From a virus (lineage: Duplodnaviria > Caudoviricetes): a DNA stretch of 44,050 bases. Below the pieces are notes generated by a model. That model searched no databases and was not told the DNA's origin. It was given only the letters and a program-made list of their open reading frames with translations. Position 1 is the stretch's first letter. Every line of letters begins with the position of its first letter. The translations under genes and the position numbers were made by a program. Positions 1 through 35,511 of the stretch are shown piece by piece. The DNA is taken from positions 1 to 44,050 of the IMG/VR virus record IMGVR_UViG_3300043219_000223, one strand, 5' to 3'.

Positions 1-26
1 TCCAGTACCTCCACCGCCTATTCCGG
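1..26. repeat. 26-bp terminal overlap, identical to 44025-44050 (circular assembly)
   Basis: tccagtacctccaccgcctattccgg occurs at both ends; joining the ends restores a continuous ORF with an RBS. Confidence 0.95.
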
Positions 27-38
27 ACATAAAATCTC

Positions 39-1610
39 CTAAAATCCGTCTGTTAATGGATCATAATCACTTTCTAACTCATATGTCAAGGGATTGTATT
101 CCTTTTCGTCAGTTCCTTGACGTTGTGCAAACAGTTTCACAGGCATTATGCTGGCAAACCCAGAGCCTTTTTCATACACATATCTGGAAGAATCCATCTC
201 ATGATCGTTTTCCTTTACTACCTTACCGTTCTTATCCCTGCGGTAAAGGCGAAACTCCCCCAACCAGCCCTGGCAACTCTCAAAAACCTTGAAACGGCCT
301 TCACTCATGGCCAGTAACATGTTAAAAAGTCCGGACTCTACATTACCAGCCTTTCCTTTTGGGGCCACGGTAAGCCCGGGAATCAATTTCATATACGTCT
401 TAACCAACTGAACACCGTCAGCAGAACTTGTTCCAGCCGCTGGATCAGACACCCCGGGAATCCATTCACCCCTGAGCTTTACATTACTGGCATGCACCTC
501 TGGCTCTGTCATTCCCCGCTTATATTCATCAGTAAGATAAAAAATAGGCTTTTCCGGCTCTATATTCCATGCCGCCCAGGTAGCCGCAGTAGCGTTCCAG
601 CCATGATCAAACCCGTAAGATCGGGGCCAGTAAGCAGGAATAGGGAAATCAGGCACCACGATATCACTCTCAGGAATGGGAAATATCGCACCGCTGCCCA
701 ACTGAGGAATACCTTTAGACCGTGCGTCAAGCTGATATGGCGGAATACTTTTGCGAAGCTCTTCCTTTTCCGCATCACTCAAGTGAGGGGCATCATCCCA
801 GGTAGCCGAAACGATAAACTTATTTGAAGTCTTGTCATGCCTGTCAGGCACCTTACCGCCCGGCATGAACGCCAGGACAACCTCTGACATGCCCTGCAGT
901 GGTGTAAAGGTTAGTATAATAATACCGCCCACAAAACCACCGGTAGCCATGGTACGGATAAGGCACTCACCGTAAATATCAAGCGGCGGCTCCTCATCCA
1001 GCAGGATCACATGTTTTTCAACCCCCTCAAAAGAGGTCCTGCCCTGCTCGTAACTCTTAAAAACAAGGGTACTGATTCCGCCCTGAACATTCTTTATCTG
1101 AACCGAAGCAATGGCATCCGGCACCCCAGGCTTTCTCCGGGGCTCACCAACAATCATATCGCCAGGGATAAGACCGGTCCCGATAGCGTTCATTGGGCCG
1201 AGCAGCTTCTCCTGCAAGATATCGCGGGTAGTCTCATTGGACTTACCAGCAGCCCAGGCATCAATACGGCCTTTAAACCTTTTACCCTTCCACCAGTCGG
1301 GATAACTGCCTGTGAGGTGATAAACCAGTTCAGTCGCACCGGTAATTGTTTTCCCGGACCTGTTCGCGGCCATAAAGGCCCGCTCCCTGAAATACGCCCC
1401 TGCCTCAAAAAACTCCATGTGAGGAATATAAAGCTCTCTCCTTAAAGGCCCGGTCTCTGGAAAAAAAGAGTCAATAAACATCCGGCTCTTCTTGCGCTTC
1501 CGTTCTTCCAGGGTCTCAAAAAGCTCAAGCTTCTGCTCCCTGCTCATCTTACTCAGGTCAAGATTCTTGATATCTTCCTTGCTGTGTATGTTAAGATCAG
1601 ATAAATCCAT
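39..1610 (-). CDS. terL: Terminase large subunit (P22 gp2-like)
   Basis: Walker A AANRSGKT, Walker B ILLDEEP, TFTP coupling motif, C-terminal RNase H-like nuclease (GFDHG...DHEMDSSRY); upstream of portal on the circle. Confidence 0.95.
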   Translation of the reverse strand: MDLSDLNIHSKEDIKNLDLSKMSREQKLELFETLEERKRKKSRMFIDSFFPETGPLRRELYIPHMEFFEAGAYFRERAFMAANRSGKTITGATELVYHLTGSYPDWWKGKRFKGRIDAWAAGKSNETTRDILQEKLLGPMNAIGTGLIPGDMIVGEPRRKPGVPDAIASVQIKNVQGGISTLVFKSYEQGRTSFEGVEKHVILLDEEPPLDIYGECLIRTMATGGFVGGIIILTFTPLQGMSEVVLAFMPGGKVPDRHDKTSNKFIVSATWDDAPHLSDAEKEELRKSIPPYQLDARSKGIPQLGSGAIFPIPESDIVVPDFPIPAYWPRSYGFDHGWNATAATWAAWNIEPEKPIFYLTDEYKRGMTEPEVHASNVKLRGEWIPGVSDPAAGTSSADGVQLVKTYMKLIPGLTVAPKGKAGNVESGLFNMLLAMSEGRFKVFESCQGWLGEFRLYRRDKNGKVVKENDHEMDSSRYVYEKGSGFASIMPVKLFAQRQGTDEKEYNPLTYELESDYDPLTDGF

Positions 1611-1618
1611 AGTTATCC

Positions 1619-1634
1619 TGTTTCACGTGGAACA
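1619..1634. promoter_or_regulatory. parS-like ParB binding palindrome
   Basis: TGTTTCACGTGGAACA is the exact reverse complement of the canonical parS TGTTCCACGTGAAACA; it fills most of a 24-bp intergenic gap. Confidence 0.85.
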
Positions 1635-1958
1635 TTAATTAAGCCCAGAAGCACCCTTAATCACAGGTATCTTATCCATACCTGCCGCATGCACCTGCTG
1701 CACAGTATAAACCATGCCACAGACCACGCATCGGTAATAAGGAAGTTCAGCAATCATATCCTGGCCAGTAGGACTCACCAGCCTCGATAAGCTCCGCAAC
1801 TGGATCACCTTATCAAAATACAGGCAGCCGCAGTCAACTATGACAGTGGTATGATTGCCGTCCACCACATCGTCTTTTAAAATCCGGCCGGAGCAGGAAA
1901 AGGGCTCCACATCTCCCAGATCAACCTGGGGTCCACCTAATGCTGGAATTTTAGGCAT
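1635..1958 (-). CDS. Hypothetical Zn-ribbon-like phage protein
   Basis: CGC...CVVCG cysteines; overlaps the upstream gene's stop. Confidence 0.7.
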   Translation of the reverse strand: MPKIPALGGPQVDLGDVEPFSCSGRILKDDVVDGNHTTVIVDCGCLYFDKVIQLRSLSRLVSPTGQDMIAELPYYRCVVCGMVYTVQQVHAAGMDKIPVIKGASGLN

Positions 1959-2223
1959 TTAAAGACTCCTCAAAATCTTTGCGTAAATTTCTTTGTTTTC
2001 TTTCTAAAGTGCCTGGACTAAAATCTTCAATCACGCAATCAAGATAATAACAATGCCCTGACTTCCGGTGACGATAAACCTTCATAGGTGGGTTACCAAG
2101 AAAGTCTGGGCCGGGATTATCCTTAAAGAATTTCTGAGGTCCACCCCAAGACTCATACCCAAGCCAACCGGTTTCCCAGTCAACTGCCTCATTACAAAGA
2201 TAACAGTAAGCTCTCATAATCAT
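1951..2223 (-). CDS. Hypothetical protein
   Basis: ORF with GGAGG RBS and CxxC; co-oriented in the terminase block. Confidence 0.65.
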   Translation of the reverse strand: MIMRAYCYLCNEAVDWETGWLGYESWGGPQKFFKDNPGPDFLGNPPMKVYRHRKSGHCYYLDCVIEDFSPGTLERKQRNLRKDFEESLNA

Positions 2224-2247
2224 TCCTCCGTATAGGAATTTAAAAGG

Positions 2248-2463
2248 TTAAGGCCCCCTGGTAATTGACTCCTCTATCCCAAGAACCATATTGTAAAAAC
2301 TAACAGTATAAGGAATGTTCAAGAGTTCCAAGTCACGGCTCACATGCTTCACATGAACAGGATTCTTGCCACGGTGAGTATATGTGCCCTGCCCACAGAG
2401 AGCGCCTTCCTTGAACTCAACCTGCTCTCCACAGGTCTCACAGTGTATTGTAAGGTTAATCAT
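2248..2463 (-). CDS. Hypothetical protein (CxxC)
   Basis: AAGGAG RBS upstream; co-oriented. Confidence 0.65.
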   Translation of the reverse strand: MINLTIHCETCGEQVEFKEGALCGQGTYTHRGKNPVHVKHVSRDLELLNIPYTVSFYNMVLGIEESITRGP

Positions 2464-2580
2464 TATAACTCCTTAAAAGCAGGGGGTTTAATGGGGAAAA
2501 ATGAAGGGATTGGTGTATATATACATGACCGGCGGTTCGGCTCAGGGGGGTGGGGGGTGCCATAAGAGACTCCTTTTTAT

Positions 2581-2790
2581 TTATTCTGGTTTGAATAGGT
2601 ATTGAACTCTTGGATGGCTTAGGATGGCCGGGGCCTGCTCGCTGATCTCTTTCAGGTGCTTGATACTATCAAAGATAGGAGGGACCGGGGCAATGTATCG
2701 CATGTAATGGTCAGCCATACCCAGGGCAAGGGGAGACCGCCAAGGCTCCTTGCGCTTCCTGTACTCTTCCATCTTGATCAGATCACCCAT
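2581..2790 (-). CDS. Hypothetical protein
   Basis: AAGGTG RBS; co-oriented between the terminase genes. Confidence 0.55.
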   Translation of the reverse strand: MGDLIKMEEYRKRKEPWRSPLALGMADHYMRYIAPVPPIFDSIKHLKEISEQAPAILSHPRVQYLFKPE

Positions 2791-2818
2791 GATATCACCT
2801 TATTGAGACTACTATTGC

Positions 2819-2846
2819 AAGTCCGATAAAAACTATTATGTAAACT
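2819..2846 (+). other. dif-like XerC/XerD recombination site
   Basis: AAGTCCGATAA-AAACTA-TTATGTAAACT: 11-6-11 layout with inner ATAA/TTAT inverted repeat; right arm close to the XerD arm TTATGTTAAAT; intergenic. Confidence 0.8.
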
Positions 2847-2904
2847 TTGATCTTAACTGCCTGTTATTATTGACATTGCTTATTGAGAATAGGGTTAATA
2901 TGAG

Positions 2905-2925
2905 TTATCCACAGATTTATCCACA
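2905..2925 (+). promoter_or_regulatory. Two perfect DnaA boxes in direct orientation
   Basis: TTATCCACA at 2905-2913 and 2917-2925, 3 bp apart, in AT-rich intergenic DNA. Confidence 0.75.
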
Positions 2926-2978
2926 AGTGTTAATAGGTAATCGGTAGGTAGATACTACCATTATGATACAGATGTGTG

Positions 2979-3542
2979 TCAATCCATCATATCAGCCAGA
3001 CCTGCCTTGATCTTGTCCTCAAGCTCTTCTTCTGTCATATCACGATTGACATTGTAGTTTGTGGATTCTGTCTTGGTAACCATGTTGAAATCAGCAGACA
3101 GCACAAGAGCGGATATCTTAGGGTCAAGGGCACCGGCCAGGGCGTGAGTAACTGAATATCTTCTAATTAAATCCCGCGCGCGTGTAATCATCGCCTGAAT
3201 ACGGGAGCTTACATCATCACTTAAATTAATATGATTTCTATTTTTATAGTTATTTAGGGCAGTTACACCAATACCGAGGGTTTCAGCAAGTCCAGCCATT
3301 GTGTAGGGTTCGGGAACTTCGACCTCGACAACCTTACCTTTAGATACAACACGCTTGATAATAAGGTTAGTTTCACACTCTTCAAAGTATTGAGTAATAG
3401 CGTCCTGGACATTATCAGGATTGGTCAGGCGTGGATATTTCCCATTGACCCCATAACCTGTGCGACCAGCAAGGAAACGACCTTTAGAATCACGGTCAGG
3501 GTTTTCAATGACTTCGGGGAGTAATTCAGGATTAGCAGTCAT
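2979..3542 (-). CDS. terS: Terminase small subunit (P22 gp3-like)
   Basis: N-terminal RDSKGRFLAG motif, I..YF..C, PYTMAGLA..LGI...L.NY helix-turn-helix; upstream of terL. Confidence 0.85.
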   Translation of the reverse strand: MTANPELLPEVIENPDRDSKGRFLAGRTGYGVNGKYPRLTNPDNVQDAITQYFEECETNLIIKRVVSKGKVVEVEVPEPYTMAGLAETLGIGVTALNNYKNRNHINLSDDVSSRIQAMITRARDLIRRYSVTHALAGALDPKISALVLSADFNMVTKTESTNYNVNRDMTEEELEDKIKAGLADMMD

Positions 3543-3545
3543 TCT

Positions 3546-3632
3546 TTACCTTTTAGGCCATTTACAGGCATTAGTGACCAAATACACTTCAAGAACGATC
3601 AATATTCCAATGGCTAAATATAATCCTATCAT
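3546..3632 (-). CDS. 28-aa single-pass membrane peptide (not in ORF track)
   Basis: MIGLYLAIGILIVLEVYLVTNACKWPKR; G-rich RBS; stop 3 bp before the terS start. Confidence 0.55.
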   Translation of the reverse strand: MIGLYLAIGILIVLEVYLVTNACKWPKR

Positions 3633-4063
3633 TCTTTTACCCCCCTTGCTTTTAATAATACATATACCTTAATTGGCGGGCTCTGTCAAACCTTCGAGGA
3701 CAACTGCATCAGGTGGACCTCACGGCCCAACCCATTAATGAAAGCATTTATTATCCGGCATTGTCAAGGAAATAATGAGCTACCTTTAAACCTCTATCAT
3801 TCCAAGGCCTTAATATTTCAAATTATGCAAAGAGTACTATAAATTAACATTACCATATACGGTAATTCAAATTGGTAACTCATTTATACCTTGCCCGAGC
3901 ATATTTGCCTGATAATAATTTCAATTTGTGAGGAAATCAGAGTAAATGGGCAAACTTAGTAGTCTGAAGGACTATTTAATTATTGATGTAGTAATACCAA
4001 CGGTTCCCAGCCCTTGACCTTCTGAGACCGCCTGAGATCGGCCTGTATCACCCCATTGTGTTG

Positions 4064-4092
4064 TTGAGACAACTTTTTAATTTTGAGAGAAT
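4064..4092 (+). promoter_or_regulatory. Candidate sigma70-type early promoter
   Basis: TTGAGA-17 bp-GAGAAT with TG at the extended -10 position, ahead of the first plus-strand gene. Confidence 0.4.
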
Positions 4093-4128
4093 AGGGACAG
4101 TTAAACACTCAAACCAAGGAGCAGGACA

Positions 4129-8253: not shown

Positions 8254-8606
8254 TCCATCCTCTTCCCGGTAATCAACCCGGCGATCTTCCTAATGTTTTC
8301 CTTTTGCTCAATACTTTTCGGCCTTTCCTGCTCTGCCAGTAGCCTGACATTCTCCTTAGCTTGATTACTTAAGGCCACTGACCGCATTACTTTGATAATT
8401 TCACCTGGTTTAGGAAAGAACTGCCTATCCTCTTCTCTGACTATCTGATTTACGGCTGAAATGAGATCTGGCAGCCGTCTCACAAGGGCGATAATGTTAT
8501 AATATTCATCAAGAGCAGCCAGCCCGGTAACACCCTCGAACCTGCCAGGATGAAAAATAAGTGCCAGCCTTGCCATTTGATCTGCAAAATCTTTTTCTTC
8601 AATCAT
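8250..8606 (-). CDS. Helicase loader/inhibitor-like protein
   Basis: Directly after the initiator with ATGA overlap; FFPKPGEI motif typical of this position. Confidence 0.55.
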   Translation of the reverse strand: MIEEKDFADQMARLALIFHPGRFEGVTGLAALDEYYNIIALVRRLPDLISAVNQIVREEDRQFFPKPGEIIKVMRSVALSNQAKENVRLLAEQERPKSIEQKENIRKIAGLITGKRME

Positions 8607-9427
8607 CCTTCCTCTCCTTTTTTCTTCAACCAAGCGTCCATATTGTCCAGCGTCCCTTTCATAGCTTTATCCTGCTTGCTGTGAGATATACCTTTCCTGT
8701 TCCTGGTTAAATGTGAAACTATTTTATCAAACTTCTTTCTCAGGGATTGAGTTCCTTGAACCTCAAAGGTAATTTCCCCGGTCAGATTATCGCCGTATAG
8801 CCAATTAACCACATATTCGATTTGCTCAACTGATCTTCCATCTCTCCGAATCATCAAGTCAATATGTTTGGCCCAGGATTGGATTGAAGGAGGATTTTTA
8901 ATAAAGCGGTGAGTTGGAAATTCTAAAACAATCTTCTCGAGTAGAAGTCGGCTCAATCGAACCTCGTCAGAGGTTTCGATAAAGGGTTCTTTCTTTAAAG
9001 ATAAAGAAGAAGTAGAAGAGGAAGAAGAAGGGGTTGGTTTTTGGTTGGCCTCTTGCTTAACCTTTTGGTTAACCAAGTTAGGGTTACCACCAAGCTTTCC
9101 AACCTCTCTTCTAATATCCCTAAGTCGCTGATCTTTAACCATTCTCTCGCAATATACCACCCCTTCACTATCAGTTTTTAATACCCCTGATATCAATAGG
9201 GTATTAAACGATTTTATAAAGGTTTTATGATGGAGTCTTAAGACTTTTGCAACGGTCTTATGAGCAGGCTTTAAGCCATTTATAAGCAAGTAACCATATT
9301 TTTCTGATTGGTGCATAAGACACATAAGGTCAATCATTAACCCTTTTGCTGCCAGATCACAGGAGGCCAGTTTAATATCATTCAGCCAATCAGCCGGATA
9401 AAATTGGAAGGCAGGAAGGTTGGTCAT
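8603..9427 (-). CDS. Phage replication initiator (YdaU/DUF1376-like N-terminus, lambda O-like C-terminus)
   Basis: PAFQFYPADWL, GKLGGNP, Ser-rich linker, WAKHIDLMIRRDGR...LRKKFDKI. Confidence 0.8.
   Translation of the reverse strand: MTNLPAFQFYPADWLNDIKLASCDLAAKGLMIDLMCLMHQSEKYGYLLINGLKPAHKTVAKVLRLHHKTFIKSFNTLLISGVLKTDSEGVVYCERMVKDQRLRDIRREVGKLGGNPNLVNQKVKQEANQKPTPSSSSSTSSLSLKKEPFIETSDEVRLSRLLLEKIVLEFPTHRFIKNPPSIQSWAKHIDLMIRRDGRSVEQIEYVVNWLYGDNLTGEITFEVQGTQSLRKKFDKIVSHLTRNRKGISHSKQDKAMKGTLDNMDAWLKKKGEEG
9004..9074. repeat. Probable origin iterons inside the initiator gene
   Basis: Three 12-bp tandem units ttttggttggcc/tcttgcttaacc/ttttggttaacc (9039-9074) next to a purine tract (9004-9030). 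Confidence 0.55.
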
Positions 9428-9436
9428 TCCAACACC

Positions 9437-9679
9437 TTACAGTTTTTTAAGTTCTTTAATTTTATCAGGAACGGCCACAGCAATGTAGGCCCTAATCTTA
9501 TCCGAGACGCTGGTTGCTGGCTCTACCCCGTCTTTCTCATAACCCCTGAGAGATTGAGGTGTTATTACCCGGCCTTGCTTAGTGTGGTTGTTGATTGCAT
9601 TTGCGAACTGTTTCCTGGACATACCAAGGGCTTCCCTGGCTTCCGATATTTCTTTTGAAATTGTCTTTTTCATTTTCAC
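9437..9679 (-). CDS. Cro/XRE-family HTH regulator
   Basis: AREALGMSRKQFA...ITPQSLRGYEKDGVEP pattern; first gene after the leftward promoter. Confidence 0.85.
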   Translation of the reverse strand: MKMKKTISKEISEAREALGMSRKQFANAINNHTKQGRVITPQSLRGYEKDGVEPATSVSDKIRAYIAVAVPDKIKELKKL

Positions 9680-11822: not shown

Positions 11823-12221
11823 ATGGAATGCGCATGTGAAGTTTCAATGGACATAGATTCTTGTCATGATGATTTCCACAACAGGGCAGAGCGTAAAGCC
11901 ATCAAAGAACATAAATGTGGGGAATGTGGGAAGATTATTGTTAAGAGAGAGAAATATCAATACATGACAGGCAAAAGTGGTGGATATATGTACACCCATA
12001 AAATGTGCAATGACTGCCATAGTATTCTGAAATATTTTTACAACGGCGGGTTTTTCTTTGAACAACTTTGGGATGATCTTTTTGAGTTTATACGCGAAAG
12101 TGATTACACGACAAATGAAAAATGCTTGGCTCAGATCACCCCTGTTGCCAGAGAAAAAATATGCGACTATATCCAAGAGAATTGGGATGATCCTGATATG
12201 TGGGATAATGAGGATGATTAA
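11823..12221 (+). CDS. Zn-finger phage protein
   Basis: RKA.KEHKCGECG..I..G/REKY...MCNDC. Confidence 0.75.
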   Translation: MECACEVSMDIDSCHDDFHNRAERKAIKEHKCGECGKIIVKREKYQYMTGKSGGYMYTHKMCNDCHSILKYFYNGGFFFEQLWDDLFEFIRESDYTTNEKCLAQITPVAREKICDYIQENWDDPDMWDNEDD

Positions 12222-12222
12222 A

Positions 12223-13038
12223 ATGACCACCTGGCAACAAATGCCCCTCCAGGACTACCTGGGCAAGAAAGGCATAAGCTCACACGGGTTCAAACTCCTG
12301 GATCAGTCCGGGGCTGCCTACCATGGCCGGGACCAGAACACAACGCAGTCTAAGACTCAGATTTACGGATCAGCCGCCCACAAGAAGATTCTGGAACCGG
12401 CAAGCTTTTCTCAGGACTTCCGGTATCTCCCGGCCTCAGTTGCCAGAATGACCCAGACCTTGGAGGATGAGGAGAAAAAGGGGGGCTTTACCTACCTAAA
12501 ATATGCCGAAGGTATGGAGTTAGAGAAGTGGTCGAAAGCAGTTTACGAGAATGAGGATGCAAGAAACATGCTGACACATCCTGACATTCAGGTCGAGGTG
12601 TCCGGGTTCTGGAATGATCCTATCTGGGGCATACTTAAGAAGTGCCGGCCTGACTTCATTATTCCCTGCCTGGGAATCATGGGCGACCTGAAAACCATGA
12701 CTATGAAGGGCAAGGAGCTTCGGGACGTAGCAGAGGTTTTCGCCAAGGATGTTTGGAAATATAAATATCATTGGCAGGCAGCACACAATCTAAGTTCCGG
12801 AGAGTTCATTGACGGCGTAACATATGACTCATTTGTCTGGATAGTTATAGTCAAGGAAAAGCCTTATGAGGTTGATGTGATTGAACCGAATGCAGCCATG
12901 ATATATAACGGCCAGGAGAAGGTGAGAAAGCTGACCGAGTTCTATGCCGAGTGTGAGCACACCGGGATCTGGCCCAAGCGGACGAAACCAGGGCTGAAAA
13001 CAATCAGCCTGCCAGAGTATGCGTTAAACGAGGAGTAA
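12223..13038 (+). CDS. PD-(D/E)XK exonuclease, RecE/ExoVIII-like (DUF3799-type)
   Basis: ISS..K, GSAAH..ILEP, E.S.FW, KCRPD, DLKT, Y..QAA; start revised from 12058. Confidence 0.85.
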   Translation: MTTWQQMPLQDYLGKKGISSHGFKLLDQSGAAYHGRDQNTTQSKTQIYGSAAHKKILEPASFSQDFRYLPASVARMTQTLEDEEKKGGFTYLKYAEGMELEKWSKAVYENEDARNMLTHPDIQVEVSGFWNDPIWGILKKCRPDFIIPCLGIMGDLKTMTMKGKELRDVAEVFAKDVWKYKYHWQAAHNLSSGEFIDGVTYDSFVWIVIVKEKPYEVDVIEPNAAMIYNGQEKVRKLTEFYAECEHTGIWPKRTKPGLKTISLPEYALNEE

Positions 13039-13075
13039 TAATGTCTGATAATTTACCAGAAAAAAAGGAGAAGTA

Positions 13076-13393
13076 ATGGAAGTTTTAATGGTTAGGCCGT
13101 ACATCGGCAATCGCAACGAGGTCGTTAGTGACCAGCACGAAATGATAGTTAAGATTAACGCCACTGAATTTGCCCAAATGTGTGGGCTTCCGGGCGGTAG
13201 AGAGTCAATTTCCAAGCTTTTCCAAGGGAAAGAAACAACATTTAATGTTGGGGAAGTGTACAAAGAAGCCCGTGAAATAGTGGACGCACTCCCCGCTATG
13301 ATGACCGCCATTAGAACCATTAACAGTGGGGCCGGTAAACTTGAAAAAGTCCTGACCGCCAAAAAGGAGGACGAAACAGATGCCAAAAGCTAA
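13076..13393 (+). CDS. Hypothetical protein
   Basis: AAGGAG RBS; co-oriented. Confidence 0.7.
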   Translation: MEVLMVRPYIGNRNEVVSDQHEMIVKINATEFAQMCGLPGGRESISKLFQGKETTFNVGEVYKEAREIVDALPAMMTAIRTINSGAGKLEKVLTAKKEDETDAKS

Positions 13394-14516
13394 GGATAAA
13401 AATAAAGAAATTGAAAAGAAAGAGCAGGTTGAGACCTTACTAGAAGAGAAAAAAGCTGCTGCACCATTGCCAGTGGTAGATAACGGAGAGTTCTCAAACT
13501 GGCTGGATACCGCCAAGTTCGGGCAATTATACAGAGTGGCCAATGTGTTTGCTGATTCCGGTGAAATGGTTCCTGAGCATTTCCGAGGTAACCACGCGGC
13601 CTGCATGATTGCCGTTCAAATGGCTTTTCGTCTGAAGGTTGACCCTCTGATGTTCCTGCAAAAATCATATATAGTCAAGGGTAAACCGGGCATAGAGGCT
13701 ACATTGGCAATATCACTGGCCAACACTCACGGGCCGTTTGAGGGAAGCATTAAATACAGGATAGAGGGTACTCCTGGCATGACCGACTCATCATGCACCG
13801 CATGGGCCATCATGAAAGATTCTGGCGAGGTCTGTGAAATGCCTTTTACTTGGGAAGATGCTGTTTCCCCTGGATGGGCCAGCAAGGATAACTGGAAGAA
13901 AACCCCTAGGCTGATGATGATGTACAGATCAGCAATGTGGCTTATAAGAACCCATTGCCCAGAAGTAATCCTCGGCCTTCACAGTAATGATGAGCTTTCC
14001 GACAGTGATAACATTATAGATGCCAGCGAGGTAAATATCACCTCTGCCACTAAGAAGCTTGAGAGCATACGGGAAGAGAAGGAAGCCGGGGAAGCTGAGG
14101 TCTTAGAGGCCGATCCTGTCACATCTGACGAGAAACAGCCCGAAGAAGAACCTAAGCAGGAGTCTAAGGCTTCAGAAGAACCCGACCAGGACCCGGGCCC
14201 GGACCAAGACGAAGAACAGACCAGCCTTTTAGATCAGGGCCAGGATCAGGAGAAGGTGGAACCGAAACCCATTGATCCGCTCACAGTCACCTGGAAACTC
14301 GGGGCTGGAAAATCAGAGGCCTTTCTTTCTGCAATAATTGCGATTGGCTGGAACACCGCTCATGTTGAGCAGAGGATAAAGATCACCGGTGCAGACCTAG
14401 GCAAAAAGAGTCAGGCAGAATTTGACACCTGGATCATAAACTGGGGAAAGGCTATGGACTCAGACGAAGACCGGGCAGCATTCCTGGCTATGTGCGGGTG
14501 TGTACCACCAAAATAA
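13380..14516 (+). CDS. RecT/Beta-like single-strand annealing protein
   Basis: VP.HFRGN...C.IA, YIVKGKP, W...PRLMMMYRSA....R..CPEVILGL...DEL; downstream of exonuclease. Confidence 0.8.
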   Translation: MPKAKDKNKEIEKKEQVETLLEEKKAAAPLPVVDNGEFSNWLDTAKFGQLYRVANVFADSGEMVPEHFRGNHAACMIAVQMAFRLKVDPLMFLQKSYIVKGKPGIEATLAISLANTHGPFEGSIKYRIEGTPGMTDSSCTAWAIMKDSGEVCEMPFTWEDAVSPGWASKDNWKKTPRLMMMYRSAMWLIRTHCPEVILGLHSNDELSDSDNIIDASEVNITSATKKLESIREEKEAGEAEVLEADPVTSDEKQPEEEPKQESKASEEPDQDPGPDQDEEQTSLLDQGQDQEKVEPKPIDPLTVTWKLGAGKSEAFLSAIIAIGWNTAHVEQRIKITGADLGKKSQAEFDTWIINWGKAMDSDEDRAAFLAMCGCVPPK

Positions 14517-16468: not shown

Positions 16469-16469
16469 C

Positions 16470-16499
16470 TTGACAAAATAAGGGAGGTGAAGGTATGAT
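16470..16499 (+). promoter_or_regulatory. sigma70-type promoter with no downstream ORF
   Basis: TTGACA-18 bp-TATGAT, followed about 25 nt later by a terminator hairpin. Confidence 0.6.
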
Positions 16500-16525
16500 A
16501 TGAGGGTGTAAATGTTTCCCAACAG

Positions 16526-16560
16526 AAGCCCCTCATTTATCATCCTTGAGGGGCTTTTTT
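16526..16560 (+). terminator. Intrinsic terminator, possibly bidirectional
   Basis: AAGCCCCTCA-11 nt-TGAGGGGCTT followed by a T run. Confidence 0.85.
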
Positions 16561-16574
16561 ATGGGTAAATAAGC

Positions 16575-16762
16575 AAGGGCTGAATCATTGTCCGGCTCAT
16601 ATGATGCCAGCAACTATCAGCCCCGCACCCTCGGTCGAAACCTTGGGGGTAATTCAATGGACATGTCATCCCGCTCTGAGCTGTCCGGGTCTGCCCGGAT
16701 GAACGATGACTTTAGCATCTCATGCCCGCTATTATTAAACCAAAAATCCGGGCGGTTGTCAA
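16575..16762 (-). ncRNA. Candidate structured ncRNA with its own promoter
   Basis: TTGACA-17-TTTAAT (16762-16734) then three GC-rich stem-loops; no RBS-bearing ORF. Confidence 0.4.
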
Positions 16763-16766
16763 TAGG

Positions 16767-31248: not shown

Positions 31249-32172
31249 CTACCACCTGCCCGCGCCAGACCAGGAATTATCCCCAGTCTCGGACTCAAGG
31301 AAATCAAGTGATTGATCGAGGCCAACAGCCCCTTTCAATGCCTGCTCGTACCTGATCATGGCCTGCTCTTCTTTTGTTGTCGAATTGGTAACCTTGATGG
31401 CCAGTTCAGCGGCAATCCTCCAAGCCAGGGTATCTACAAATTTTGCTGTATAGTTCGGTAATGCACCCTCTCCGGCCAGGGCAAAAGTATAAGGGTTCTC
31501 ATCACTGTCATTATTCGCGATGCTCACGGTAGCCGTATAATCTCCCACAACAGACGGAGTAAAATCTATTGTGAACGTAGAGCTTTCTCCCGAGGCAATC
31601 GGGCTTGAAGCGTCAGCACCCAGAGTAAATACTTCTGTGTCGCCGGTGATTGTCACAGCTGGAGAATCTGTAAGGTAGAGATCACCCAGCCCGCTATTTG
31701 TTATAACGAAATCTTGACTCAAGCCACCAACCGCTCTTCTGATGTATGTAAGAAATAAATCACCGTTATCACTGTCATAATCAGTAAAAAGGCACTCTGT
31801 TCCATCGTCAAGGGTTTCCACCACATATGTAAATTTATAACCAACCGCACAAATAAATCCATTTAGACCAACATAGTTCCCTGATTCAAAAACAGCCGGG
31901 TCCAGTTCTTTCTCCTGGAAGATTCTCATAAAATCATCGGGGATAAGATATGCGAAATCGTAAAAGTTCGCCGGAGTGGTCCCGCTCTTTACCAGGGCAA
32001 CCCTGATCTTAGCAAACCTCCAATCGGCGGATTCAAGAACCTCATCCTGCATGAAGTCATATACAGCATTGACATCTCTGGCCCTGTCAGAGTCTTCCGT
32101 GAGGGAATTTATCTTTGCGGCCCCAAGATTTCTCAATGCTTTGTTGGCTATTTCTAATTTGGTGTATGCCAT
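31249..32172 (-). CDS. Tail adaptor (tubular protein A) paralog with an inserted partial Ig-like domain
   Basis: Clearly homologous to 36460-37137 (MAYTK..IAN.AL, DWRFAK.RVALVK, ETLDDGTEC, ETGD.SW.GAGR) plus an 88-aa insert. Confidence 0.85.
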   Translation of the reverse strand: MAYTKLEIANKALRNLGAAKINSLTEDSDRARDVNAVYDFMQDEVLESADWRFAKIRVALVKSGTTPANFYDFAYLIPDDFMRIFQEKELDPAVFESGNYVGLNGFICAVGYKFTYVVETLDDGTECLFTDYDSDNGDLFLTYIRRAVGGLSQDFVITNSGLGDLYLTDSPAVTITGDTEVFTLGADASSPIASGESSTFTIDFTPSVVGDYTATVSIANNDSDENPYTFALAGEGALPNYTAKFVDTLAWRIAAELAIKVTNSTTKEEQAMIRYEQALKGAVGLDQSLDFLESETGDNSWSGAGRW

Positions 32173-33578
32173 CAGGATATACCCGCCTTGCCAAAATCAG
32201 TGCCATCATCCTCAGACGGCGTGACATCTCCGTCAATTATCTCAATATCATTCCCGGTAATACACATCTCAGGAGCTACCCCGGCCCCGGACACGGCGAA
32301 AGTATAAGGGTTCTCATCTGAATCGTTGTTGGCGATTGAAATCGTGGCGGTGTATGAAGCCACGGCGCTTGATACGAATGAAATTATAAAAGTAGCACTT
32401 CCACCTATCGCCACAGAAGTAGGCGCGTCCGTATCCAGCGTGAACTCTGCATCATCGCCTGTAATAGTCACTCTGGGCGTATCTGTAAGATAAAGAATCG
32501 CATCGCCAGTGTTCTTTATCGTAAAGGTATGCGTTACCTCAATCCCAACAGTGTTATTCCCCCAGGCCGTATCATTGTCCACGGATGAAATAGTAGAGCC
32601 ATCAGGAATGGATTCCCCCTTACCCTGTACGTCCATCTCTGGAAAGGTATTAGCCTCAGAAGCGCCCATTGACCATGGACCGATTATAGGACTTCCTCTT
32701 TTATTTATCGGTACATCAATTTCAGGCCATGTGGCAGGATTAAATGTTGTTCCCTGTCCCTCAATGTCTGCACCAGATTTAATGGTAAGGTCAGTAGCAG
32801 TCCAGGGCGCACCAACTGGATTAACAAGTTGGTCCGCAGTGGTTAGATTTATTAGACTGTTCGCCCCTTCTGTGGCAGAGCCGTCAGCGGTGGCGTTATA
32901 GTCCTGTTCACCCTGGGTGCTTTCTATGTCAACCGTCTGCCCTAAAACAGCATTGTTTTTTAGAATATAATTATCAAAAAAACCGCCTTCTACACCCAAT
33001 TCTCCACATAACGCTATAGTATTATTGGCAACAAATGTATCGTCAGGCACACTGCTTATCGTCACCCCAATATCAGGAGTCCCATAAATAATATTTCGAT
33101 AGAATCCAATAGCACCTGGCGCGGCTTGTACGCCGACAAGATGCGCTCCGGGAGTTGCCGCACTTACATGCTCATTGTTATTATGAATAATAAGATGATG
33201 GAAACGCCCGTAATTGGCTGTATCGCCACTTCTGAATCTGAAATTTGCATTTGCCCCTGGGCCTTTCAGTTCAAGCCATGACATCTGAACGTATACGTCT
33301 AAAACTTCTGCTACTGTGGCCCCGGAAACCTCCACCCTTGCATTACCCTTACCTGAAACCTCATGCGCACGTCCATCAGGTTCTGCGCCAACCAACGAGT
33401 GAAGATCTGGGAAATTAACAGCCGTATAATTCCGGCTATCACTAAAAGAAAATGCGCCAAAAACCTCAGCCTTACATTCACCAATATAATGATTACCAGT
33501 ATTAACTCTAAACGCTATCCAGAGAGATATGTCGGTATAAGTTTCACCAGTTCCAATGGTGTCGGTAATGGTAGCCAT
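32172..33578 (-). CDS. Beta-helix-like virion protein with choice-of-anchor-D/ASH-type Ig-like domain
   Basis: NIIY/NNTI/KNNA parallel beta-helix pattern; FTIKNTG...SIANNDSDENPYTF. Confidence 0.75.
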   Translation of the reverse strand: MATITDTIGTGETYTDISLWIAFRVNTGNHYIGECKAEVFGAFSFSDSRNYTAVNFPDLHSLVGAEPDGRAHEVSGKGNARVEVSGATVAEVLDVYVQMSWLELKGPGANANFRFRSGDTANYGRFHHLIIHNNNEHVSAATPGAHLVGVQAAPGAIGFYRNIIYGTPDIGVTISSVPDDTFVANNTIALCGELGVEGGFFDNYILKNNAVLGQTVDIESTQGEQDYNATADGSATEGANSLINLTTADQLVNPVGAPWTATDLTIKSGADIEGQGTTFNPATWPEIDVPINKRGSPIIGPWSMGASEANTFPEMDVQGKGESIPDGSTISSVDNDTAWGNNTVGIEVTHTFTIKNTGDAILYLTDTPRVTITGDDAEFTLDTDAPTSVAIGGSATFIISFVSSAVASYTATISIANNDSDENPYTFAVSGAGVAPEMCITGNDIEIIDGDVTPSEDDGTDFGKAGIS

Positions 33579-34150
33579 TAGATATCCTTGAATTTTGCGG
33601 CAGGAATAGGCTTGTCAAATCTCGGTCTGACGATTTTTGATTTATCTTTAATTTTAATCAGTGTATCGCCTGAAATCCCTTCATCAGCGTCAAAGTCAAA
33701 TACTTTTTTGTATTGCCAAGACTCCACCTGTGCAGGGGCAGCGTCTTCATTGGTAACGATGAGTGCTATTTTAAGAATATGCTCACTAAATAAAACAGTC
33801 TCGTAAGCCCTTTTATTGGACTCTGGGGCGTAATTAATATAGCTTAACAATCCAGTATCTTTTATATGCTTATCCCAAAAAACCTGTGGGTAAGTATAAT
33901 CTCTAAAAAGTAAATCACTGGCTTTAACCCAAGCATCCCTTATCCCAGGATTGTCATCCCAAGCCTCGCATATATATTTCCATCCAGGGATTTTAGCATT
34001 TTTATACGCATCTCTTTTCATTGGCCCTGGTTGAGGGAAATCACAAAATACTTGTATCCAATACCGCATGATTCGTGGATCAGAATAAACAGCAACCACA
34101 TAACCAAGAGGCGATTCAGGGTTGTCAATATTTAAGGCTATCTCTGACAT
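33578..34150 (-). CDS. Hypothetical protein
   Basis: Stop/start overlaps on both sides. Confidence 0.7.
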   Translation of the reverse strand: MSEIALNIDNPESPLGYVVAVYSDPRIMRYWIQVFCDFPQPGPMKRDAYKNAKIPGWKYICEAWDDNPGIRDAWVKASDLLFRDYTYPQVFWDKHIKDTGLLSYINYAPESNKRAYETVLFSEHILKIALIVTNEDAAPAQVESWQYKKVFDFDADEGISGDTLIKIKDKSKIVRPRFDKPIPAAKFKDI

Positions 34151-35511
34151 TATCTCACCAAATCCCTGACGAGCGGTCCAACTAGAGGCCGGACGAGTTT
34201 GCCAGCATCAGAGGCAGATATACCCGTTCCGGCAATATCAAACGTGTAAGGGTCTTCATTATCGTCATTGTTGGCGATGGAGATATTGGCCTCAAATAAG
34301 CCAGCCCCACTCGGAATAAAGCTGATAATAAAAGTCGTGTCACCCGCCGGGGTAACAGGTGAACCTGCATCTGTGTCTAAAGTGAACTCTCCAGTATCGC
34401 CAGTGATTACGACTGCTGGGCTGTCAGTGAGGGTTAGGTTGGCATCCCCTGAATTGCCGATAGTGTATGTAATCTTCTTCTCTTCGCCTTCAATCACTTC
34501 CTCAAAATCCGTACCGTTTGCCGCACTCGGAGATGATGAGCCGTTGGTTATTGGATTACCGTTTCCAGTGATGTCTATCTCTTGGGCGACAAAATCAGCA
34601 AAACCAAGATCCCCCCATGTTCTGGTATTTCCCCGAACATCATCATCAAATGGATAGGTCGCATCTCCTGATAAATTAGTAGTTCCATTCCCAATAGCAT
34701 CACTGTCACTGGCAGGGATGTAATTGTTTGCCCCTGTCAGGTAAGTGAAGTTTAAATTTTGTAATCCAACTGACCCTGAAGCGTCAGATGAGCCACAGGT
34801 TGTGAGGTTCAGTGTGCCGCCATCTTGTAAATAATCTCTACCTACAATGGAAGCACCGTCAGACAGACCATTCTTTACGTTCATGGTTCCCGATATGCAA
34901 ACAATGCCCTGTTGTGACCCAATACTGGTGGGGTTGTAATGATACCCAGTTCCAGTTGAATGAGCAAAATTAGTAAGATCAGTATCCGCAATCAGGCAAT
35001 CAACCGACCCACCATTGACAGTTAAAATTCCTTGAGTCTGGCCAGCCCCTGTGTTGGTACTGCCTGCCGACAATAATCCAACCACCGTGCTATTTACGGA
35101 ATTTGGAACCGCAAGTAATGGATTACCGGCTGAACTAACTGTATGTTTTAATGAAATATCCTGAATTTGACAATACTCTTCCACGAGGTCGAGTATTTTG
35201 TCTGATACAGTATCTACTAAAGCTAATACACTACCATCATATTTTGGTATTCCCGGAAAAAGTCCGGTTGGGCCACCCTCTCCAACCGCTGGCCTGAAGT
35301 TTCTGCCATAAGTGGCATTATTAGTAGCCCCTGTAAATGTAAGAGTTTTATCATAAACCCCGGCATAACCCTCCATGGTAGGTGATGACTGGGCGGTTAC
35401 ATTATCCCCGTCTGTAAGATCAGCCATATCCTGCGGGTCATCAACATCACCACCTGTGAGCTTTAAGGTGGTGATTACTTCATTGGTGAATGTATGCCTT
35501 GCGGAGGCCAT
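34150..35511 (-). CDS. Beta-helix-like virion protein with C-terminal Ig-like domain
   Basis: G/T/S/N-rich; EIDITGNG...NGTDF...SIANNDDNEDPYTF; LVxx tail. Confidence 0.75.
   Translation of the reverse strand: MASARHTFTNEVITTLKLTGGDVDDPQDMADLTDGDNVTAQSSPTMEGYAGVYDKTLTFTGATNNATYGRNFRPAVGEGGPTGLFPGIPKYDGSVLALVDTVSDKILDLVEEYCQIQDISLKHTVSSAGNPLLAVPNSVNSTVVGLLSAGSTNTGAGQTQGILTVNGGSVDCLIADTDLTNFAHSTGTGYHYNPTSIGSQQGIVCISGTMNVKNGLSDGASIVGRDYLQDGGTLNLTTCGSSDASGSVGLQNLNFTYLTGANNYIPASDSDAIGNGTTNLSGDATYPFDDDVRGNTRTWGDLGFADFVAQEIDITGNGNPITNGSSSPSAANGTDFEEVIEGEEKKITYTIGNSGDANLTLTDSPAVVITGDTGEFTLDTDAGSPVTPAGDTTFIISFIPSGAGLFEANISIANNDDNEDPYTFDIAGTGISASDAGKLVRPLVGPLVRDLVR

Follow-up and report, generated by a model that had tools for sequence, protein, structure and literature searches.

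Why would a tailed phage carry, between the genes for its two terminase subunits, the kinds of DNA sites by which bacteria maintain their chromosomes, while no gene for a cognate protein can be recognised in it? The question is raised by a stretch of 44,050 nucleotides (the window, i.e. the whole of IMG/VR record IMGVR_UViG_3300043219_000223; Duplodnaviria, Caudoviricetes), in which a parS site, a dif site and two DnaA boxes lie at positions 1611 to 2978, between the large (terL) and the small (terS) terminase gene. A sequence-only reading had suggested that the phage persists as a mini-chromosome or as a dif-integrated element run by host proteins, or that the sites mimic self DNA or titrate host factors. 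Of that interpretation three points have stood: the sites are of host type, proteins that would act on them went undetected in the phage, and their place at the packaging end is shared by many unrelated phages. Integration at dif has not. In the openly accessible main texts searched, we found no description of dif, parS and DnaA boxes together at a tailed-phage terminase. The interval between terS and terL likely acts as a gene-free docking strip, situated at the packaged end of a phage that does not integrate. We propose, with about equal prospects of being right and wrong, that host XerCD would recombine the phage DNA with itself (circularisation, dimer resolution) during an ordinary infection, with ParB and DnaA as helpers.

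The sites and the genome that carries them

The parS site (TGTTTCACGTGGAACA, 1619-1634) has the make-up of a chromosomal one, being a 16-bp palindrome with one mismatch to the consensus in a phage in which ParB was not detected. It is the only site with two or fewer mismatches in the genome, lies in a 24-bp gap in which it ends 8 bp before the terL start, and overlaps the likely ribosome-binding site (AGGA, minus strand). The dif site (AAGTCCGATAA AAACTA TTATGTAAACT, 2819-2846, plus strand) shows the two 11-bp arms and the 6-bp spacer of a chromosomal dif: an XerC-type arm at 2819-2829, the spacer AAACTA at 2830-2835 and an XerD-type arm at 2836-2846 (arm names that we take to be transferable from the dif sites of E. 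coli and B. subtilis); no other site in the genome comes within three arm mismatches. The two perfect DnaA boxes (TTATCCACA, 2905-2913 and 2917-2925) have the same orientation (plus strand), are 3 bp apart and are the only perfect boxes present. They adjoin a stretch of 68-72% A+T (2800-2939), an arrangement of tandem boxes beside A+T-rich DNA as found in oriC-type origins. The dif site and the boxes share a 188-bp gap after the terS stop codon, the boxes lying 54 bp beyond that stop, where a TTGACA begins. The sequence-only reading had placed all these elements between genes at the same positions, which was borne out in full.

Each motif pattern occurred in none of 100 dinucleotide shuffles, where the dif pattern was taken from the phage itself and the independent evidence for dif consists of the 115 GTDB loci and the scan of 301 genomes (199 positive) described below. 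With an order-3 Markov model the expected numbers per genome were 3e-4 for parS, 1.5e-4 for the tandem boxes and 4e-4 for a generously defined dif; a single DnaA box alone would be insignificant (0.64 expected). The probability of three random points falling within 1.3 kb of the circle was 0.003, and larger non-coding gaps elsewhere (e.g. 3543-4128 and 16469-16766) hold none of the three motifs. At an oriC-type origin a DnaA-trio unwinding element is expected directly 3' of the boxes; no run of such triplets (CTA-type, 3') was seen there by eye, and the promoter/terminator scan gave no sigma-70 promoter at the boxes. Two further kinds of signal were set aside: four KOPS-like octamers (GGGNAGGG; at 2387, 14519, 21317 and 24803), all on the one strand that leads towards the XerD arm when the circle is followed round, are too few for significance and confounded by strand skew, and a single matS site with one mismatch was disregarded.

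The genome is a closed circle, as had been claimed: removal of the 26-bp end repeat (the direct terminal repeats of the IMG/VR record) leaves 44,024 bp, and the junction falls inside an open reading frame (ORF) and is also spanned by a second assembly (L002, without differences over 1-3886). The CheckV completeness estimate of only 73% is probably too low. The position of the sites between the two terminase genes was likewise upheld, by Pfam, PHROGs and PDB matches for both. TerL, a P22-type large terminase of 523 aa encoded by the first gene of the virion operon (39-1610, minus strand), matched Terminase_6N/6C, phrog_2 and, as its only PDB match, 4DKW, which we take to be P22 gp2; TerS (187 aa; 2979-3542, minus strand) belongs to the P22 gp3 family (PF16677, E 2e-14; phrog_606) and weakly matched 3P9A (E 0.035), presumably P22 gp3. 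The phage thus has the gp2/gp3-family genes of P22-type headful packaging, and by analogy with P22 a pac site would presumably lie in or near terS.

In six-frame profile searches, whose controls matched in 10-14 of 14 genomes, the phage gave no match to a tyrosine recombinase, serine resolvase, ParB_N, ParA (AAA_31), S24 peptidase, FtsK or FtsK-gamma, and no integrase, resolvase, ParA/ParB or CI-type peptidase was present among the 61 ORFs searched with Pfam and PHROGs or the 63 searched with NCBIfam. The earlier impression that recombinases and Par proteins are unrecognisable thus survived both kinds of search. That a CI-like gene is lacking was true in part: the S24 domain was not found, but a single 80-aa HTH_3 protein exists in Cro position (9437-9679, minus strand; weak repressor-family match, E 8e-4), for which no CI-type partner was found, the 90-aa ORF divergent from it showing no likeness to a repressor. 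With integrase, resolvase, Par genes and S24 undetected, the phage looks non-integrating and without a recognisable immunity switch.

Recurrence on chromosomes and in other viruses

The 21 arm bases of this dif type were identical in 115 GTDB loci, and the 80 titles listed for these include Brevibacillus, Desulfobacterota, Myxococcota, Acidobacteriota and Nitrospirota. On two complete Brevibacillus chromosomes the site is at mid-length (0.49 and 0.50), and on two circular chromosomes from metagenome-assembled genomes, in which the sequence start relative to the origin is not fixed, it is at 0.46 and 0.32. A pattern allowing one mismatch occurred, mostly in single copy, in 199 of the 301 genomes of the order to which one Desulfobacterales genome belongs (reversed control: 1), and four of five genomes with this dif type carry the same parS pattern. 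The phage spacer AAACTA was found in none of the 115 genomic loci, the nearest spacers differing at 3 of 6 bases; both AAA and CTA are absent from the corresponding place in all 115. No genomic spacer of that set starts with A, and one of the 150 listed from the 301-genome scan does (AATATA). A spacer unlike all 115 genomic copies argues against integration. In candidate-host genomes we also saw seven second dif copies with unusual spacers, none beside terminases; second copies with non-chromosomal spacers at L682:9220 and L684:9438 are situated within or at the margin of island-like elements, which by eye seem to carry their own integrase and primase.

In IMG/VR the scan recovered 119 viral loci with this dif type (about 170 estimated), 117 of which made up the viral spacer set, this phage and one duplicate being left out. 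The three commonest genomic spacers (TATATA, TGTATA and GATATA) accounted for 4 of the 117 viral sites versus 71 of the 115 genomic ones. With 1-4 ORFs tested per flanked locus (200 ORFs in total, assigned by PHROGs), terS, terL or portal was found near dif in 52 of the 78 flanked viral loci, or 28 of 52 sequence clusters, our own phage excluded. In 39 of the 52 packaging-linked loci dif comes after terS and/or before terL; its orientation is unbiased (29:23), and no integrase was found among the 200 flanking ORFs. Local BLAST placed dif upstream of terL in 42 of 54 matches, a count which, like that for parS given below, is inflated by reference terminases drawn from the dif and parS sets themselves; the PHROG-based 52 of 78 is independent of this.

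Various further arrangements of dif were noted. In one phage cluster (L425, L427, L431, L433, L450, L454, L468, L477, L493) it lies 0.2-0.75 kb downstream of portal, mostly with the spacer CCTTAA; the two ends of one IMG/VR record carry the same dif (L428/L488); and at L486:9296-10285 a dif is accompanied by a parS-like site with 2-3 mismatches at a distance of 0.3 kb and by an FtsK/SpoIIIE-like gene at 2.9 kb. A scan of viruses with the E. coli-type XerC arm gave seven matches to another dif type, one of which (L331) also stands before a terminase.

The site is also present, unannotated, in cultured Bacillus phages: KF669648, KF669659, KF669651 and MT422786 (Bacillus pumilus Andromedavirus) and PP552876 (PK-1) (L543-L547). 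It lies there at the stop codon of the first gene (about 704-766), which is annotated as terS in MT422786; in the record examined as far as terL, dif precedes that gene. The dif sites of Blastoid, Riggi and Glittering (739-766) fall inside the annotated terminal repeats of 830, 829 and 851 bp, respectively. The 830-bp repeat of Blastoid was read from raw sequencing data in a paper that calls the role of the phage FtsK unknown and leaves dif unmentioned (PMC3853047). Over the five named records and two IMG/VR loci the arms are invariant and four spacers occur (TATATA, CATTCA, CAACCA and CATACA). A tyrosine integrase was found in none of the five named records and an FtsK-family ATPase in four of four. 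For the dif part of the question these cultured B. pumilus phages would constitute a directly testable system.

A C-run on the coding strand of our phage (CCCCCCACCCCCC, 2545-2557, minus strand) is a candidate terminase cut or recognition element. Double G/C runs were found within 400 bp of dif at 24 of 78 viral loci versus 24 of 698 background windows; in 15 of the 20 cases that could be oriented it is a G-run that follows dif. The three B. pumilus records with annotated repeats start CCCCCACCCC, their repeats ending in a G-rich tract. The C-run near dif speaks for a genome end no more than about 1 kb from any of the three sites; taken as the left end, it would possibly put parS inside the repeated stretch.

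The other two motifs are far more frequent among viruses, with about 9,500 IMG/VR stretches estimated for the exact parS pattern (from 1/64 parts; 7 for the reversed control) and about 6,800 for tandem DnaA boxes (from 2/64 parts, scanned without reversed control), numbers which indicate that the habit is not rare. The 74 flanked parS loci (251 ORFs) include 13 of phi29-like phages and 3 of microviruses, and yielded one integrase, one match to a ParB C-terminal domain inside a giant protein and no ParA/ParB pair. Eighteen of them contain terL, with parS upstream of its start in 14. For the tandem boxes, terL was present in 14 of 80 loci, the boxes being upstream in all 14 and oriented as here in 12 (p 0.013). 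Separately, in three Microviridae contigs (L211, L248, L261) a parS that matches the chromosomal type exactly was seen close to the genes for replication and capsid. Pairs of motifs precede terL in unrelated phages: DnaA boxes and dif (L426, L452), dif and parS (L442, L490) and DnaA boxes and parS (L580), with DnaA boxes and dif also in L523, where the flank is too short to reach terL. Within 150 bp of viral dif sites there were 5 perfect boxes versus 0.37 expected, from only 3 of the 117 loci, and a perfect or one-mismatch parS occurred in 2 of the 117, both within 412 bp of dif. The full triple was seen only in this phage.

Among 160 loci of TerL relatives, parS lies upstream of terL in 6, one (L020) shows three DnaA boxes at 2.2 kb ahead of the gene, and 16, probably of one lineage, have a 2-mismatch parS inside terL; the dif scan of these loci used the E. 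coli-type XerC arm, which is insensitive to the present dif type. The palindrome inside terL lies about 443 bp into the gene (L015-L017, L020-L022, L024, L348-L352, L354-L356, L412). The three nearest named TerL relatives showed no motifs in the stretches examined, which for one comprised only 0.5 kb upstream. Distant capsid relatives were found in 11 of 401 genomes, and no prophage of this phage was found.

Proposed self-recombination by host XerCD and its alternatives

The data are fitted best by a reading that the sequence-only one had not considered, namely recombination of the phage with itself across its own terminal repeat. Fixed arms with a drifting spacer are what phage-phage recombination would predict, since both partners would be phage copies and the spacer would be free to drift, and integration would instead select a host-matching spacer. 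With the genome end in or near terS, dif would be present twice in virion DNA (by terminal redundancy) or would lie beside the end. Host XerCD could then join the two copies, closing the incoming DNA without phage gene expression, and/or convert dimers to monomers. Host ParB would load at parS and position or compact the circle, as host Spo0J does for phi29. In the weakest step, DnaA at the two boxes, which would not be the main origin, may aid early replication or brake transcription into the virion operon. The outcome would be an ordinary lytic or briefly paused infection, not lysogeny. What the sequences show are the motifs, their position, the undetected cognate genes and the recurrence; every one of these protein actions we infer.

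Several points weigh against this proposal. A RecE-like exonuclease and a RecT-like annealing protein (12058-14516, plus strand; Pfam, PHROGs and NCBIfam) form an alternative route of circularisation that would render the Xer route redundant; with FtsK undetected in the phage, activation of XerD would need the host, and in the FtsK of the Bacillus phages no gamma domain was detected. In polarity the C-run at 2545-2557 corresponds to the left genome end of the Bacillus phages; should this run be the cut site in our phage, the repeated stretch would just miss dif, whose use would then be confined to dimer resolution. The spacer of Blastoid is the common chromosomal one, and enterobacterial gokushoviruses integrate although their dif spacers vary (PMC7062461). 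No packaging gene was detected at 26 of 78 dif, 56 of 74 parS and 66 of 80 tandem-DnaA loci, and the counts at the remaining loci come from a tally of terminase proximity without a neutral viral-locus background and, for dif, from a viral scan without a reversed control. Finally, scans with TerL, TerS and portal gave no close relatives beyond the same phage, the next TerL having at most 57% identity; 131 of the 160 TerL-relative loci (36-57% identity, many of them short) are without any motif, and in three related prophages inspected in candidate-host genomes no motifs were found at the terminase. Motifs and pairs recur near the terminase in unrelated phages; their lack in most TerL relatives and in the related prophages implies that the strip is optional and assembled from interchangeable parts.

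Persistence as a repressor-less, plasmid-like mini-chromosome that uses host DnaA, ParB/SMC and XerCD only is, in our estimation, rather unlikely. It would explain why sites for all three functions of a circular replicon lie within 1.3 kb and why integrase and Par genes went undetected; the non-chromosomal spacer suits dimer resolution, the boxes have A+T-rich DNA beside them, and the sites could replace the resolvase and partition pair that known plasmid prophages have of their own (PMC8026635). However, a CI-type repressor was not found, the boxes are only two and lack a clear DnaA-trio run, and the cluster stands at the packaging end and not at the replication genes, where a separate lambda-O-like initiator (8603-9427, minus strand; phrog_4880, 2514 and 391) likely marks the main lytic origin module. 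The same sites moreover occur singly in phi29-like phages (13 of 74 parS loci), in microviruses (3 of 74) and in the integrase-less Bacillus phages, so that little of the mini-chromosome suggested from the sequence alone was left standing. A further version, in which tailed phages in general would bear a gene-free 'chromosome passport' at the packaged end, complete in this phage, so that parS, dif and DnaA boxes by themselves let host XerCD, DnaA and ParB/SMC close, replicate, partition and quiet it, is rather doubtful too, and the same holds for the carrier state without integrase, Par genes or repressor that it implies.

That the sites mark the DNA end as self or serve as decoys, shielding it from nucleases and SMC-type defences or titrating the host cell cycle, we hold to be unlikely. 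All classes concentrate upstream of terL where it was seen (14 of 14, 14 of 18 and 42 of 54 for DnaA boxes, parS and dif), and they do so in varying pairs, as expected of interchangeable marks. That excess, however, is partly expected from the dense coding of the DNA downstream of terL, one parS and two boxes would make a poor sponge, and the preservation of both dif arms and their 6-bp spacing fits catalysis.

Integration at the host dif by host XerCD, giving a lysogen of the type formed by integrative mobile elements exploiting Xer (IMEX), is quite improbable, and with it falls the dif-integrated element of the sequence-only reading. The perfect arms and the undetected integrase would suit it, as would the variable spacers of the gokushoviruses mentioned above, and the host may have a spacer that differs from the 115 sampled. 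IMEX phages tolerate partial spacer mismatch, but their classes keep homology on the XerC side or over the whole spacer, according to a review (PMC5357621); the phage spacer has neither with respect to the 115 genomic spacers, being at least 3 of 6 bases off all of them. Insertion would furthermore separate terS from terL, a repressor went undetected, the 52 viral loci with a packaging gene have dif within or beside the packaging module and not at prophage borders, and the three genomes inspected with related prophages have no dif at the terminase.

No more probable is a role of DnaA and ParB in braking transcription of the virion operon according to the state of the host, with dif as a separate add-on. 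The overlap of parS with the ribosome-binding region of terL and the position of the boxes at the TTGACA past the terS stop would agree with such a role. The box orientation seen here, shared by 12 of the 14 tandem-box loci with terL, would be the one active in DnaA-dependent termination. This bias may, however, reflect the G skew of the coding strand, and at the boxes the promoter scan gave no promoter of the sigma-70 type. Chance matches or neutrally captured host DNA, with which the lack of a close relative showing conservation would agree, are very improbable in view of expectations of the order of 1e-4 per motif and the recurrence in unrelated phages, and no single host fragment would carry all of them, the origin being the proper place of parS and DnaA boxes and the terminus that of dif (the 115 genomic dif loci contain no parS and two DnaA boxes).

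Further features, implications and known systems

The interval also contains four small ORFs on the minus strand without a family match in Pfam, PHROGs or NCBIfam: two cysteine-rich ones of 107 aa (1635-1958) and 90 aa (1951-2223), one of 71 aa (2248-2463) and one of 69 aa directly after dif (2581-2790). For the 107-aa and 90-aa ORFs the Atlas gave no family either, the nearest clusters of the former being viral hypothetical proteins. The other genes include those for a podovirus-like head, connector and tail, RusA and the RecE/RecT pair, and Rfam and tRNA scans of the phage gave no matches. At the end of the early operon, the usual place of an integrase, a near-consensus sigma-70 promoter precedes a short transcript that ends in a hairpin and T run (16470-16560), which resembles a small-RNA gene and has no Rfam match. 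Exact repeats of 30 bp (4695-4724/4960-4989) and 34 bp (4931-4964/5174-5207) join small early genes and suggest cassette-like gene shuffling. In the region 31249-35511, Ig-like (HYDIN/VesB) domains are present in three tail-associated proteins and the tail tubular protein is encoded a second time, with internal repeats showing local duplication.

The proposal bears on genome closure by tailed phages without integrase during the first minutes of infection, and on how apparently lytic phages pause or persist. If a dif within the terminal repeat is indeed a substrate of host XerCD, many phages would own a lox system without Cre that, being gene-free, escapes annotation, and lysogeny or host contamination should not be read from the presence of dif or parS in a viral contig. 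The dif arms also narrow the host range of uncultured phages.

In phage P1, circularisation takes place inside the terminal redundancy at loxP by the phage enzyme Cre. The likeness lies in a recombination site just after the packaging start with a predicted role in end joining or dimer resolution; the difference is that a phage recombinase was undetected here and that the site is a host-type dif, predicted to be read by host XerCD. The phage is therefore not a member of the lox/Cre class but may work like one, and no paper on a Cre-less analogue of P1 loxP was found in the literature searched; dimer resolution in P1 is mentioned in PMC5357621. The same review describes the plasmid Xer sites cer and psi, which likewise borrow host XerCD for self-recombination and have a central region unlike that of the chromosome, whereas here the carrier is a tailed phage, both arms are fully chromosomal, and an accessory region for PepA/ArgR/ArcA was not identified. 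CTXphi, VGJphi, TLCphi and the gokushoviruses are also integrase-less phages with a dif-like site, but have single-stranded DNA and integrate (PMC5357621, PMC7062461); ours is a 44-kb tailed phage with a spacer without homology on either side and with dif inside the packaging operon.

As in phi29, which according to PMC2731898 uses five parS sites via host Spo0J, a chromosomal-type parS is carried by a phage without Par genes of its own. Unlike our phage, phi29 has a linear, protein-primed genome, and the use described there is spore entrapment; the present parS is single, adjoins the start of terL and has dif and DnaA boxes for company. Plasmid prophages share the circular, non-integrated DNA in need of resolution and partition, but encode their own Xer-like recombinase and ParA/ParM systems (PMC8026635), whereas partition pair, resolvase and repressor were undetected here. 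The B. pumilus Andromedavirus phages and PK-1 differ in their fixed terminal repeat of 0.83-0.85 kb and their own FtsK-family ATPase, and neither parS nor a perfect DnaA box was found in the stretches of them examined. They resemble our phage in the dif after the first gene, the invariant arms with variable spacer, the C/G-run tracts and the undetected tyrosine integrase.

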